49,691 nucleotides of DNA. Source: Chitinophagales bacterium. Lineage in GTDB: Bacteria > Bacteroidota > Bacteroidia > Chitinophagales > Chitinophagaceae. Shown here piece by piece: positions 2,626-49,691 of this stretch. A program made the position numbers and the translations under genes. Where the stretch lies: positions 1 through 49,691 of the forward strand of contig JBBSJN010000001.1 of assembly GCA_038257235.1 (NCBI GenBank). Direction: 5' to 3'. Below the pieces are notes generated by a model that searched no databases, was not told where the DNA came from, and saw only the letters and a program-made list of their open reading frames with translations. Position 1 is the first letter of the stretch; every line of letters starts with the position of its first letter.

Positions 2626-2826
2626 GTGGCAGGTCTTCTGGCTTACTTCATCAGTTTTACCTTCCCATCCATTTTTTAAAAGGACAGTGGTATGAAGAAA
2701 ACTGATTTTTCCTCCCCCTGTCTGCCAACAGGCAGGCTTCTGGGGGCGGGGAGCTTACAGCTACGGGGATAGCGTCAGATTTTGACTGACTTCCCTTTTA
2801 ATTCCGGTTATTATGCCGGAAACCAA
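2626..2826 (-). ncRNA. Cobalamin riboswitch
   Basis: Minus strand: GGTT-hairpin-AAAAGGGAAGTCAGTCAAAATCTGACGCTATCCCCGTAGCTGTAAG...ACCACTG...GGGAAGG...AGCCAGAAGACCTGCC (B12 box); boundaries approximate. Confidence 0.92.
2717..2736 (+). repeat. Family A mini-palindrome (20 nt) within a host hairpin (2711-2753) inside the riboswitch
   Basis: CCTGTCTGCCAACAGGCAGG; removal leaves CCTCCCCTTCTGGGGGCGGGGAG. Confidence 0.9.
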
Positions 2827-36470: not shown

Positions 36471-36516
36471 CTAAGTTCCCCCTGTCTGCCGACAGCCAGG
36501 CTTTAGGGGACTGGGG
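36471..36516 (+). repeat. Host REP-like element filled with a family A copy (36481-36500)
   Basis: CTAAGTTCCC[CCTGTCTGCCGACAGCCAGG]CTTTAGGGGACTGGGG. Confidence 0.9.
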
Positions 36517-38516: not shown

Positions 38517-38566
38517 CTAGCCCCTGTCCCCTAAAGCCTGCCTGTCGGCAGACAGGGGGAACTTAG
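38517..38566 (-). repeat. Host REP-like element filled with a family A copy (38537-38556)
   Basis: Minus strand CTAAGTTCCC[CCTGTCTGCCGACAGGCAGG]CTTTAGGGGACAGGGGCTAG. Confidence 0.92.
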
Positions 38567-45496: not shown

Positions 45497-46371
45497 TTAC
45501 CAGGAAACAAATACTCTTTATATTCTCTGTTCTTTTCACAAATCTGGTGATAGCACAAGGCAATGCTTCTATTAAAGCATCTGTCAATAAGAATAAGATA
45601 CTTTTGGGTGAGCCATTGGAGCTAACGATAGAAACCTATTTGCCTTCAGCAAGTAAAATAAAATTTGAACAATTAGATACAATAGCTCATTTTGAATTTT
45701 TAGAAAAGTCTGGTATTGATAGTTCGGTAACTAATGATGGTATAAAGTTTATGGTGAAATATACAATCACCAGTTTTGATTCGGGTCATTGGGTGATGCC
45801 ATCATTTAGTTTATCAAAAGGAATTAAAACAGATACTATTCCAGTTGATGTTGTGTTTTCCGATTTTAATCCAGAGCAAGATTATCATGATATAAAAGAT
45901 ATAATTGAAATAGAAACCAACAAGGATGCTGTTCCCTGGTGGATTTATGTAGTCGGAGCAGTTTTGCTGGTTTTGATGATTATAGTTTTTGCCCGAAGAA
46001 AAAAGAAACCAGTGCCAGTCGTAAAAGAGAAAGCTATTGCAAATCCTTATAAAGAAGCAATGCAACAACTGGCGGCATTGCAAAAGAAGAATGTTGATGC
46101 TAAAGTATATTATGCTGAACTAATCAATATTTTTAGATTATACATTTTTAGAAAAAAAGGAATTCTTTCGTTACAAAAGACAACTGACGATCTTATACTG
46201 CAAGTAAAGGATGTGGTAAATGAAAAAGAGCATTTTGAAAAGTTATCTCAAGCTTTACGTTTGAGTGATTTTGTAAAGTTTGCAAAATATATTCCTGCTG
46301 AAGAGGAGAAAAGGACATCATGTTCAGATATTTTAAATTCAATAAAGCTGATTGAAGGATCAGGTGCTTAA
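45493..46371 (+). CDS. Bat-locus membrane-anchored protein (BatD-like N-terminus)
   Basis: Signal peptide, ITSFDSG, DIK.I, TM, QKTTD, DFVKFAK; between DUF58 and batA. Confidence 0.7.
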   Translation: MITRKQILFIFSVLFTNLVIAQGNASIKASVNKNKILLGEPLELTIETYLPSASKIKFEQLDTIAHFEFLEKSGIDSSVTNDGIKFMVKYTITSFDSGHWVMPSFSLSKGIKTDTIPVDVVFSDFNPEQDYHDIKDIIEIETNKDAVPWWIYVVGAVLLVLMIIVFARRKKKPVPVVKEKAIANPYKEAMQQLAALQKKNVDAKVYYAELINIFRLYIFRKKGILSLQKTTDDLILQVKDVVNEKEHFEKLSQALRLSDFVKFAKYIPAEEEKRTSCSDILNSIKLIEGSGA

Positions 46372-46418
46372 GCCCCTCCTGTCTGCCGACAGGCAGGCCT
46401 CGGAGGTGTTGGGGAGGC
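46372..46418 (+). repeat. Host REP-like element filled with a family A copy (46378-46397)
   Basis: GCCCCT[CCTGTCTGCCGACAGGCAGG]CCTCGGAGGTGTTGGGGAGG. Confidence 0.9.
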
Positions 46419-46422
46419 TGTT

Positions 46423-47436
46423 ATGTTATACGACTGGATCAAAAATATGCATTTTGTTTACCCGATATTCTTCGGGTTGTTTGCATTATTACCATTGCTG
46501 ATATGGTGGTATGTAAAAAAGAATGACCAGCAAAAAGCAACAATAACTGTTTCCACGGCACATGCATTTGCTGTTACTTCCTGGAAGAACAGGGTTCGTC
46601 ATCTTCCTTTTGTATTTCGATTGCTGACATTAAGTTGTTTAATAATTGCCTTAGCCCAACCGCAAAAAAGAAATGAAGAGCAACGGTCAGAGGGAGAAGG
46701 AATTGATATTGTGTTGTGCATGGATGTAAGTGGTAGTATGGGTTCGCAGGATATTCCACCATCGAGAATGGAAGTGGCAAAGGAAGTAGCGGAAGAATTT
46801 GTCCGCAGCCGGCCGGTTGATAGAATCGGGCTCGTTATTTTCTCCGGAGAAAGTTTTACGCAGTGTCCGATAACGAATGACAGAAATACACTGATTACAC
46901 AAATTCAAAAATTAGAAAGCAGAACCTTGCTGAAAGACGGCACCGTAATCGGTGAGGGATTGGCAACAGCGGTTGACAGGCTGGTACAAAGCAAATCGAA
47001 AAGCAAAGTCATTATTCTTATTACAGATGGAAAGGAAGATGCGCCGGATACAAGATTGATTGATCCGTTAACGGCATTGGAAATTGCAAAATCACAAGGA
47101 GTTAAAGTATATACGATTGGCATGGGGGCAATTCCATCAAACATAATTGAAGTAACAGGTAATAAACCCAAAAATCGCAATCCTGAGATTGGGTTTATTG
47201 ATGTGGAACTGCTGAAAAAAATTGCTGATGAAACAGGCGGTCAATACTTCCGGGCTAAGGATAAAGAAGCATTGAAAGAAACTTATAAGCAGATTGACAT
47301 TTTGGAAAAATCTAAAGTTGATATCATTTCTTTTAACCTTGTGGAAGAAAGGTTTATTCCTTTTGTACTGGTAGCTTTGGTTTTTCTCTTTCTGGAAATG
47401 CTTTTAAGGTTTACGGTTCTTAGAAAATTTCCTTGA
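46423..47436 (+). CDS. batA: BatA-type VWA domain protein
   Basis: N-terminal BatA TMs, ALA.P, DVSGSM MIDAS, DRIGLV.F.GE...QCP.T, TDG, IA..TGG.YFRA. Confidence 0.88.
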   Translation: MLYDWIKNMHFVYPIFFGLFALLPLLIWWYVKKNDQQKATITVSTAHAFAVTSWKNRVRHLPFVFRLLTLSCLIIALAQPQKRNEEQRSEGEGIDIVLCMDVSGSMGSQDIPPSRMEVAKEVAEEFVRSRPVDRIGLVIFSGESFTQCPITNDRNTLITQIQKLESRTLLKDGTVIGEGLATAVDRLVQSKSKSKVIILITDGKEDAPDTRLIDPLTALEIAKSQGVKVYTIGMGAIPSNIIEVTGNKPKNRNPEIGFIDVELLKKIADETGGQYFRAKDKEALKETYKQIDILEKSKVDIISFNLVEERFIPFVLVALVFLFLEMLLRFTVLRKFP

Positions 47437-47462
47437 TTTGAGTATGAGCTAATGAATAGATA

Positions 47463-47552
47463 TGAGCCACATAGGCAGATAGTGCACAGTAGGAATTCAC
47501 ACATAGAATTTGCTCTATGTGGTAGACTATGTTACTAATGTTATGTGGTTCA
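47463..47552. repeat. Imperfect palindrome of about 90 bp built from CATAG/CTATG units
   Basis: TGAGCCACATAG...CACATAG-N8-CTATGTG...TATGTGGTTCA. Confidence 0.6.
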
Positions 47553-47593
47553 ATACGGATATTGGAGAGTTGAAAACATTATCTTGCAAGCCA

Positions 47594-48541
47594 ATGAAAG
47601 CAACAGTTTATAAATCCACCGGAAGCTGGTATATTATTAAAGATGAGAACGACAAATTCTGGAATGCCCGGATGAAAGGGGTGATGAAGATTGATGATAT
47701 TACTTCTACCAATCCTGTGGCAGTCGGTGATGATGTGGAATTTGAAATAGAGAATGAACTGGATGGTACTGCCATGATTGATGAGATTCATCGACGTAAC
47801 AATTATATTAACCGGCAATCGCCACGCAATAAATACCAGCATCATATTGTAGCTGCCAATCTTGACCAGTCAATGCTGGTGGCAACGCTGAAAGAACCTA
47901 AAACTTCACAAGGGTTTATTGACCGTTTTCTGGTTGCTTCCGAAATGTATCATGTGAAACCATTTATTGTTTTAAATAAATCTGATTTATACAAAGCAAA
48001 AGAAATGCAAAAATATCAGGACTGGAAAGCAATGTATGAAGCAGTTGGTTACAAAGTATTTTTAGTAAGTGCTGAAAAAAAGGAGGGTGTTGAAGGGGTT
48101 TTGGAAATGCTGAAAAATAAAACAACACTCATCAGCGGACATAGTGGTGTAGGCAAATCATCTTTTTTGAATGTCATATTTCCTGATAAAATTTTAAAGA
48201 CCCAGGAAGTAAGTGGCTGGAGTGGCAAAGGGCAGCATACAACTACGTTTGCTGAAATGTATGATCTTCCCCTGCCTGCCGGACAGGCAGGTTTTGGAGG
48301 ACGCATTATTGATACACCTGGAATGAGGGAATTTGGCTTGGTGGATATTGACAAACAGGAAGTATCTCATTATTTTCCTGAAATGAGAGATAGATTAAAT
48401 AATTGCCAGTTCAATAATTGCCTCCATTTTAGTGAACCTGGCTGTGCTATTAAAGAAGCAACTGTTAATGGTGAAATACATGAAAACCGATATGTGAGTT
48501 ATGTGAATATTATGGAAAGTATTGAGCAAAGAAGTTATTAA
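47594..48541 (+). CDS. rsgA: Small ribosomal subunit-dependent GTPase RsgA (start revised to MKATVYKSTGSWY)
   Basis: VAVGD.V, AANLD, NKSD (G4), GHSGVGKSS (G1), G.HTTT, DTPG, CQFNNCLH..EPGC zinc finger. Confidence 0.96.
   Translation: MKATVYKSTGSWYIIKDENDKFWNARMKGVMKIDDITSTNPVAVGDDVEFEIENELDGTAMIDEIHRRNNYINRQSPRNKYQHHIVAANLDQSMLVATLKEPKTSQGFIDRFLVASEMYHVKPFIVLNKSDLYKAKEMQKYQDWKAMYEAVGYKVFLVSAEKKEGVEGVLEMLKNKTTLISGHSGVGKSSFLNVIFPDKILKTQEVSGWSGKGQHTTTFAEMYDLPLPAGQAGFGGRIIDTPGMREFGLVDIDKQEVSHYFPEMRDRLNNCQFNNCLHFSEPGCAIKEATVNGEIHENRYVSYVNIMESIEQRSY
48271..48291 (+). repeat. Family A mini-palindrome (21 nt), in frame in rsgA
   Basis: CCTGCCTGCCGGACAGGCAGG; removal gives MYDLPFGGRIIDTPG. Confidence 0.9.
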
Positions 48542-48569
48542 CCCCCTGTTCCCCTAAAGGAGAGACTTA
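48542..48569 (-). repeat. Empty host-type REP variant directly after the rsgA stop
   Basis: CCCCCTGTTCCCCTAAAGGAGAGACTTA versus host reverse complement CCCCTGTCCCCTAAAGGGGAACTTA. Confidence 0.7.
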
Positions 48570-48826
48570 AAGATAATTTGCATTTTAGCTTTATTAATTC
48601 ACTCAGAATAAAATTGATGAAATTATTTTGCTCTGAATATGGGCCTTTTGTAGTGAAGAGAAAAAAACTTGCTGAGTAATTACCCCGGAGGGGTAAAAAT
48701 ATTAATAGAAAAGAAATAAAGAGAAACAGCAAAACCCTGTAAGGGTTCAATATGTTTTAGGAATTTGCACTTTTGACCGGGTAAATATTTTCAATCCCTT
48801 TAAAACCCATAATAGGAAAGGGTTCT

Positions 48827-48864
48827 AAGCCCCCTCTTTTTTGGAGAGAGGGTTGGGGGAGAGG
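48827..48864 (+). repeat. Empty REP-like host palindrome after porP
   Basis: AAGCCCCCTCTTTTTTGGAGAGAGGGTTGGGGGAGAGG, same layout as the 46372 and 13501 elements. Confidence 0.65.
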
Positions 48865-48881
48865 TCTTGAAAGAAAAAATA

Positions 48882-49691
48882 TTAGAAACGGGGGCAGTTT
48901 AATTTTCTTAAACTCCTGTCAACAGGCTTCTTAATATAGATAAGAGAGATTTCCATTCCGCCTCTTGTATTACTGGCTGGTTTCAGGCTTGATGTATTGG
49001 CATCGTACGTAGCGCCAATCTGTATGCCTGAAAACTCAATACCGATATATGGAATGGCAGCATCATTAAATCTGTACCATGCGCCCAAATAAACATTAAC
49101 CGGATCGTCTTCATCTCTGTTTACACTATAAGAAAAAGCACCGCCTACAATGGTGTTATGAGCTTTTGCCTGTATGCTATGGTTGGCAGACACATGTAAA
49201 GAATTATAACTGCCTACCGGAATTTTTCCTCCTGCCTGCAATGTTGTTCTTGGCGATAGTATAAATTGCCCACCTTGAAAACTTTCTTTGGGCCTGTTGA
49301 TATGATACATGGAGGCACCGATATAGAAATTATTATAACCATTTGTTGTACCCGAATATAAAAGCCCTGCGTTTATATCTGCATAGCTTACGTTGATCTG
49401 TTGGTTCAAAAATATTTCACCTGTTGTGCCGGGCACAAAGCCAAGTGGTGTTAACTCATCTTCAAAGTAAACTTTTTGAAGATCAAGTCGCTTATTAAGA
49501 TAAGCCCCCTGAAAACCAGCACTGATTGAGTGATAACCATTTTCATCCAATCCTTTATGATAGGCAAGTGATAATCCGGCTCCGTTTGTAACCAATACAC
49601 CATCACCGGCCCGGTCGGTATAACCTAAAATACCAACTCCCATCTGATCAATATCTGGTAATTTATCTTTTAGGATGCCAAAATCTACAGA
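48882..49691 (-). CDS. PorP/SprF family T9SS membrane protein (5' end beyond window)
   Basis: Frame stays open to the window end; D.NAGLLY, G.SMYHINRP, GAWYR..DA, G.TYD..TS.L......GG.EISL.Y. Confidence 0.85.
   Translation of the reverse strand, partial: SVDFGILKDKLPDIDQMGVGILGYTDRAGDGVLVTNGAGLSLAYHKGLDENGYHSISAGFQGAYLNKRLDLQKVYFEDELTPLGFVPGTTGEIFLNQQINVSYADINAGLLYSGTTNGYNNFYIGASMYHINRPKESFQGGQFILSPRTTLQAGGKIPVGSYNSLHVSANHSIQAKAHNTIVGGAFSYSVNRDEDDPVNVYLGAWYRFNDAAIPYIGIEFSGIQIGATYDANTSSLKPASNTRGGMEISLIYIKKPVDRSLRKLNCPRF

Follow-up and report, generated by a model that had tools for sequence, protein, structure and literature searches.

The rsgA gene of the window contains a 21-nt hairpin insert

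The window, i.e., the whole stretch of 49,691 nt that was analysed, carries the gene rsgA with an in-frame 21-nt hairpin of a repeat family designated family A, as well as four 20-nt copies of the same family. Features, with their positions in the window, are as follows.

2717..2736, + strand: 20-nt family A copy, intergenic, within a CCC/GGG hairpin repeat
36481..36500, + strand: 20-nt family A copy, intergenic, within a GTTCCCC-TTTA-GGGGAC repeat
38537..38556, - strand: 20-nt family A copy, intergenic; empty sisters of the host repeat in the genome show a precise 20-nt insertion
46378..46397, + strand: 20-nt family A copy, just past the stop codon at 46371
47594..48541, + strand: rsgA (ribosome small subunit-dependent GTPase A), 315 aa including the insert, frame intact
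48266..48270, + strand: left flank CTTCC, a Leu codon and two Pro bases; 5' arm of a weak 5-bp host stem
48271..48291, + strand: family A 21-nt hairpin insert, following the second base of the Pro226 codon and encoding LPAGQAG (residues 227-233)
48292..48300, + strand: right flank TTTTGGAGG, of which the TTTTGG portion is common to all six intact family A carriers
48311..48322, + strand: DTPG codons, six residues past the insert, invariant in alignment A1

The host gene was assigned to the RsgA GTPases by its match to TIGR00157 (234.4 bits, cut-off 100). The top 14 fold matches of the protein model were all RsgA/YjeQ, and RsgA entries of the PDB were matched by sequence as well. The letters at 48271-48291, CCTGCCTGCCGGACAGGCAGG, form an imperfect palindrome of 21 nt within rsgA, and the protein reads MYDLP-LPAGQAG-FGGRIIDTPG at this position, its DTPG being what we take to be the G3 motif. 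Close matches were named Chitinophagaceae. The four 20-nt copies (2717, 36481, 38537 and 46378) all lie outside annotated-looking ORFs, in agreement with an earlier note on this DNA that had called them intergenic. Of the host hairpins quoted in that note, the second, CCTC^C-TTC-GGAGG, is absent from the window as written; the copy at 46378 is flanked by CCCCT and CCTCGGAGG. Two further repeats of the host type, i.e., CCCC/GGGG hairpins, occur without family A directly past the rsgA stop (48542-48566) and ahead of a PorP-family gene (48830-48870).

Comparison with relatives bore out the reading of LPAGQAG as an insertion. A pattern scan of the genus matched 122 of 147 genomes and yielded 123 rsgA sites, 110 of them (hand count) without any insert. 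The filled sites held family A in five cases, +15 in three, +6 in three and +3 in two, and the family A carriers were G000, G027, G103, G104 and, with a decayed copy, G144. Among the best 120 RsgA protein matches, 99 were empty, five had +7, nine +5 and seven +2 residues. Solved RsgA chains showed a gap of 7-8 residues at the insert position, and those of Salmonella and E. coli had the 7-residue gap that the note had predicted for an ortholog alignment. Broad conservation of the seven residues with non-palindromic codons, which would speak against an insertion, was looked for and did not appear. The chance expectation for the exact 21-mer in the genome is 5e-8. An assembly artefact was rejected as the origin of the insert because contigs from three of four public DNA runs, belonging to three studies (one possibly the source sample), span it without a gap. 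In a structure model of RsgA based on a 43-row alignment (pLDDT 72; a single-sequence AlphaFold model with pLDDT 36 was set aside), the insert was placed between strands 220-224 and 237-240. LPAGQAG is predicted to sit at the tip of a beta-hairpin ahead of DTPG.

Family A inserts precisely and without target duplication

The source genome contains 29 strict and 102 loose family A copies (about 100 overall), including three identical 21-mers and 28 loose copies of 21 nt. Family A was present in 97 of the 147 genus genomes. In a scan across phyla the exact 21-mer was found in at least 126 copies on at least 122 stretches; the 80 listed titles included Bacteroidota, Patescibacteria, Omnitrophota, Planctomycetota, Nitrospirota, Chloroflexota and one Woesearchaeota assembly. 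Since the exact 21-mer is spread across phyla, the extra base is a trait of a standing subfamily, and the extra base of the rsgA copy belongs to this pre-existing 21-nt subfamily. The note had set the rsgA copy apart from the four 20-nt intergenic copies by one extra base; the 21-nt form is not peculiar to rsgA, as the 28 loose 21-nt copies and the at least 126 exact copies demonstrate. In an assembly of a cyanobacterial relative (L118) the 21-mer lies within an NTS-like hairpin, GTCATTCCCGCG...CGGGAATCCAG. Two other copies (G000:C4:26535 and C248:3463) directly follow a TAnnTTTGC stretch, which resembles the Bacteroidota -7 promoter motif.

Exact +20 junctions were seen in a duplicated tRNA-Leu piece beside the intact tRNA. 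Eight coding sites were compared with 3-5 relatives each, and a precise +21 was found in six; one site was left undecided, and atpG held a 20-mer with a separate +1. Of 55 near-exact copies, 48 had flanking direct repeats of just 0-1 nt. Family A was thus shown to insert precisely and without target duplication. The search for empty sites inside the source genome gave clear pairs for a few repeats only, most listed matches being due to chance. The exact 21-mer was preceded by a purine 5' in 119 of the 126 copies listed, this one purine being the only fixed base at the junction. Among 215 distinct sites, 127 junctions were R^Y, 47 Y^Y, 36 R^R and only five Y^R, so that in nearly every case a purine stands 5' of the junction on one of the two strands; viral scans of 11 and 28 loci entered these flank statistics only. 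The rsgA junction is Y^Y, and its copy breaks the orientation rule of the 21-mer, with a pyrimidine on the left as in seven of the 126 copies listed.

Copies in coding sequence are sorted by frame

A Pfam scan of 19 ORFs with family A revealed rsgA, atpG (ATP synthase gamma), valS, cysS, pheS, aspS, radA, recN, queA and RibD types. Family A has thus been inserted in frame in unrelated conserved genes, empty orthologs having been compared for eight sites. The coding frame was occupied by 20 of 28 copies of 21 nt and by 10 of 74 copies of 20 nt (Fisher p=4e-8). Coding status was assigned by an ORF and codon-usage rule devised for this analysis; some loose matches may be due to chance, and a radA copy counted among those of 20 nt in fact has 21. 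Among near-exact copies the corresponding counts were 12 of 17 and 4 of 38 (p=1.6e-5). In atpG (G000:C6:28115) the 20-mer is accompanied by a separate +1 about 10 nt further on, and the radA carriers get to +21 via differing extra bases. Selection for frame, as proposed in the note, is supported by the sorting of the two lengths, the atpG +1 and the radA bases. At rsgA itself the frame is kept as supposed, although the extra base arrived with a ready-made 21-nt subfamily. Decayed family A copies with amino-acid changes were found in G144, P0007 and P0096.

Several coding copies showed additional features. For atpG (G000:C6:28115 and G114, L346), the 20-nt copy and the separate +1 a few codons further on put six residues into a shifted frame (EKKVNW against KKEGTA). 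The best cysS matches of G103:C49:5670-7205 and G027:C102:3985-5487 reached only 66-67% identity and contain one TGA each. At G000:C33:8115 and L149 the 21-mer lies at N-R-K-K-x preceding A-x-R-L-T-R in what seems to be the same small gene, a possible recurrent site.

We infer that the LPAGQAG peptide is translated and neutral. Removal or skipping of the hairpin in RNA, yielding a protein without the seven residues, is scarcely credible: the insert does form a stable RNA stem, and the filled rsgA site folded as RNA with -24.2 kcal/mol (z -4.05), but the frame sorting and the frame-restoring bases at atpG and radA imply read-through, and an Rfam scan of positions 46200-49000 gave zero matches at E<=0.1.

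Probable repeated gain of family A at one bond of rsgA

A DNA tree of rsgA was calculated from 73 rows with the loop excluded (rows were chosen around carriers and eight short rows were dropped). On this tree the seven family A carriers require seven changes and 10 rows with a second family, designated B, require eight, gain and loss not being separable by parsimony. The AU test rejected monophyly of the family A carriers, with p-AU 2.3e-4 for the whole set and 9.9e-5 when only the five genomes were considered. The insert is identical in G000, G027, G103, G104 and L200. Five intact carriers have exactly the same 27-nt segment from Pro through the insert to Phe, whereas identity at flanking synonymous codons amounts to 45-62%. 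In codons 1-3 adjoining the site, carriers do not resemble one another more closely (0.44) than empty alleles do (0.43). Patch transfer by recombination was rejected, as no co-converted flanking bases were found. Identical inserts amid saturated flanks fit recent separate gains rather than one old gain or a patch. The family A carriers at rsgA therefore very probably represent independent gains, and it is likely that family A was gained at exactly the same letter of rsgA about seven separate times.

The opposite history would be a single old insertion in rsgA that was kept for a function of the RNA hairpin or the loop and was often lost precisely, or that spread as a short recombined patch. 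The position of all five genus carriers in one genus subclade, the stable RNA fold of the filled site (-24.2 kcal/mol, z -4.05) and the failure of parsimony to polarise the changes are compatible with it. It is nevertheless very improbable in view of the identical inserts amid saturated flanks free of co-converted bases, the lack of a flanking direct repeat that could drive precise slippage, the existence of decayed copies (G144), and the alternation of B with A at the bond, where the distant lineage L179 carries a different family variant.

The longer-loop sites in metagenomes were more diverse. Of 96 such rsgA sites, three held family A, 11 family B and 82 unrelated letters (+3 to +30 nt). 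Two of the three A sites use the same bond and the third (L234) lies 6 nt upstream; L179 has another family-wide A variant at the same bond. Family B is a TCCCGAT-N4-ATCGGGA palindrome that shares its left junction with A and replaces three loop bases. The unrelated inserts of +3 to +30 nt indicate that the loop is broadly tolerant. Inserts of +6 nt (PPAGG type) may represent a third hairpin family and were left uncounted because Pro-Pro and Gly-Gly codons are palindromic by chance. In two metagenome sequences (L196 and L260) a second family B copy sits inside an older B copy in the same loop, giving +30 nt. Among 401 genomes of the family, 18 had a longer rsgA loop and only G000 held family A, which counts against a universal hot spot. 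The patchy, precise and recurrent occurrence supports the earlier reading as a mobile insertion.

Recurrence at other genes

The Y-N^Q site of radA carries family A in five of 41 genomes with differing frame-restoring bases, and its tree (26 rows) requires four changes (p-AU 1.7e-53). A site in an asparaginase gene is filled by family A in three of seven. At the F-N^I site of radA family A was found in none of 10 others; of the four sites tested genus-wide, this one showed no recurrence. The asparaginase junction that holds A in G000 carries an unrelated, hairpin-rich 60-nt insert in G027:C342 (L354), and the amidohydrolase loop occupied by A in G000 carries family B in G103:C11 (L371).

Some local preference is likely, since A and B share a junction and CCT-TTT occurs in six of six intact carriers. 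On balance, recurrence seems to result mostly from few tolerated positions together with a local, A-rich preference for a 5' purine, a hairpin aiding some sites only. Tolerance alone explains poorly why rsgA, an exception to the orientation rule, was hit again and again.

Proposed hairpin mimicry at the target

The earlier note had suggested that the rsgA site was recognised because it mimics the hairpins hosting the other copies. According to this explanation the mobiliser would pick small stem-loops of the CC-TTTT-GG kind, the insertion point being the 3' loop edge. Empty sites lay in a hairpin in 45 of 190 cases compared with 1224 of 9348 controls (13%; odds ratio 2.1, p=8e-5), but multi-copy hairpin hosts inflate this stem count. 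Insertion 1-2 nt into the 3' arm was seen in seven of 16 strand-resolved cases and in 92 of 870 controls, and the insertions in the tRNA-Leu anticodon and the tRNA-Arg D-arm are at loop 3' edges. Moreover, CCT-TTT was present in six of six intact rsgA carriers compared with 17 of 42 empty Pro-Phe alleles (hand count), and A and B have one left junction in common, B replacing loop bases. Folding energies did not follow this trend: over 170 sites no significant excess was found in the larger classes (p 0.06-0.5), and one class of nine sites folds less than controls. The recurrent radA and asparaginase sites have no hairpin (0 to -1.2 kcal/mol). At rsgA, a 5-bp stem was recognised by eye in only three of seven rebuilt carrier sites, the other four having a 2-bp stem with mismatches. 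The empty site of the window, i.e., its joined flanks folded as DNA, reached -2.1 kcal/mol, a value equalled or beaten by 14% of rsgA positions. Support for mimicry is weak and structure-guided targeting is doubtful; a hairpin at the target is a helper at some sites and not the rule.

Each hairpin family is paired with a GIY-YIG gene at tRNA genes

On contig C293 a gene for a 78-aa GIY-YIG protein (G000:C293:763-999; PF01541, 67.7 bits; weak sub-cut-off match only in NCBIfam) is located between a 5' tRNA-Leu duplicate bearing family A and the intact tRNA. Among the best 30 homolog loci of this protein, G000 included, family A was present within about 110 nt in 24; four of the remaining six had a shortened, split or cut A copy and two a related hairpin. 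At these 30 loci the hairpin always occupies a duplicated piece of tRNA-Leu, -Arg or -Glu, at several tRNA positions, and strict family B was found at none of them. A second GIY-YIG gene (C91:10226-10492, at tRNA-Ala), 28% identical to the first, has B at nine of 11 homologs and A at none of the 11. Hairpins A and B are physically paired with two different GIY-YIG subfamilies.

Further arrangements of this kind were noted. In the tRNA-Ala(GGC) duplicates at G000:C91:10100-10774 (L412) and L413-L422, B takes the place of the anticodon arm, either in part or entirely (9/11). A third GIY-YIG cassette lies past tRNA-Ser(TGA) at G000:C30:15450-16100, where the downstream tRNA duplicate has two other hairpin-like inserts. 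Family A copies in the tRNA duplicates of L401 and L407 are split at their centre by a further hairpin insert.

An alternative mobiliser is an HUH Y1 transposase (RAYT or IS200/IS605-like peel-and-paste), the GIY-YIG cassettes being only favoured landing places. Precise insertion without target duplication, as observed for family A, is typical of HUH enzymes. The source genome has seven Y1_Tnp matches, two of which are accompanied on one side by a single A copy no more than about 300 nt away, an observation from one genome. At G000:C43:2600-3200 a broken Y1-like gene contains two A copies, and a DHIHL (HUH-like) motif adjoins one of them. On the other hand, a GTAG/CGTC tag was found within 6 nt of only two of 102 copies, no target motif of 4-5 nt was seen, and the pairing of A with the nuclease at tRNA-Leu and -Arg and of B with that at tRNA-Ala is not expected of passive landing sites. 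A Y1 enzyme is therefore an unlikely mobiliser. A reverse transcriptase (RVT_1) match was not found in the 90%-complete source genome with the query used.

Proposed mechanism

We consider it fairly probable that the 21-nt insert of rsgA represents one copy of a tiny hairpin element, which was pasted precisely and repeatedly at one bond by repair of GIY-YIG nicks and was kept because it is in frame in a tolerant turn. The tRNA-lodged GIY-YIG nuclease would introduce nicks into single-stranded DNA on the 3' side of a purine, its cognate hairpin would be patched into the nick during repair by the host, and selection would retain in-frame copies at tolerant surface turns. For the part of mobiliser assigned to the GIY-YIG protein, with repair copying or ligating the cognate hairpin into the nicked single strand, the chances appear about even. 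GIY-YIG nucleases hydrolyse DNA and, to our knowledge, none is known to join it, which counts against such a part. Of the 52 genomes that encode the first nuclease, 48 contain family A, compared with about 49 of the 95 (hand count) without a homolog (E<=1e-12), a co-occurrence that is confounded by kinship, size and assembly, tRNA loci often being lost from assemblies. The four genomes with the nuclease that hold no A, and those that hold A without the nuclease, also argue against the model.

In its widest form, this proposal describes hairpin micro-transposons of 16-21 nt, each with its own tRNA-lodged single-domain GIY-YIG nuclease, that spread letter-for-letter across phyla by nick-and-patch, converge on the same bonds in essential genes and write fixed peptides (LPAGQAG, PDSYRD) into core proteins. 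This generalisation is tentative, somewhat less than evenly probable; if true, it would mean transposition without transposase, reverse transcriptase or target duplication. With its dozens of filled/empty pairs at exact junctions, its natural hot sites and a candidate enzyme of 78 aa, family A allows a direct test of the mechanism. Short inserts that are shared between housekeeping proteins and often serve as clade markers can be repeated gains of mobile hairpins. Recurrent sites chart where essential proteins tolerate seven additional residues. An activity that inserts short DNA precisely and without duplication would, if real, be a useful tool.

Comparison with known systems

No description of family A or B was found by sequence, peptide or concept in the main text of the accessible papers. 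MITEs, which are DDE-derived, have terminal inverted repeats enclosing an inner part and cause target-site duplication; family A differs in that it has no inner part, its junctions are precise and its flanking direct repeat is 0-1 nt in 48 of 55 copies. Palindromic elements derived from IS200/IS605 (PATE) cause no duplication and are inserted on the 3' side of a fixed motif of 4-5 nt; family A also inserts without duplication, but only one purine is fixed at its junction.

The Rickettsia palindromic elements (RPE) measure about 150 bp, are confined to Rickettsia and are found in frame in unrelated housekeeping genes (as summarised in PMC10969869). Like the RPE described there, family A is a palindromic mobile repeat that lies in frame in unrelated genes and adds a fixed, seemingly tolerated peptide. 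Unlike these elements, it comprises 20-21 nt in a Chitinophagaceae-like host and is letter-identical in many phyla and one archaeal assembly. Moreover, separate lineages carry it at the same bond, and it is associated with a tRNA-lodged GIY-YIG gene.

REPs tagged with GTAG/CGTC are described as mostly intergenic; some copies lie within genes for DNA repair or tRNA synthetases and preserve the reading frame (Di Nocera et al. 2013, PMC3733652). Family A resembles these intragenic REPs as a short palindrome with some in-frame copies in genes of the same two kinds. It differs in that the GTAG/CGTC tag is lacking (2/102 copies tagged within 6 nt) and that its main partner is GIY-YIG and not RAYT. 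The string 'CCTG' is absent from the text of PMC3733652. The same text offers a precedent in different REPs at about the same recB site, whereas the recurrence of family A is at the same nucleotide and was tested on trees.

A further likeness is to the Ssn proteins. It is established that these single-domain GIY-YIG proteins bind their own hairpin as ssDNA and cleave it (Chenal et al. 2025, PMC11893778), and in the same text each subfamily has its own hairpin and a mobile-element origin is raised by the authors. As with the NTS/SRM hairpins of that system, a small single-domain GIY-YIG gene (78 aa) lies beside its own hairpin repeat, with one hairpin per subfamily (A beside 24 of the best 30 homologs). 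However, none of the 102 A copies matches the SRM consensus, for which the source genome has four matches. The main text on the Ssn system does not contain the word 'tRNA' (PMC11893778), whereas hairpin A is found within a duplicated piece of tRNA, and its dispersed copies are precise insertions of 20/21 nt.
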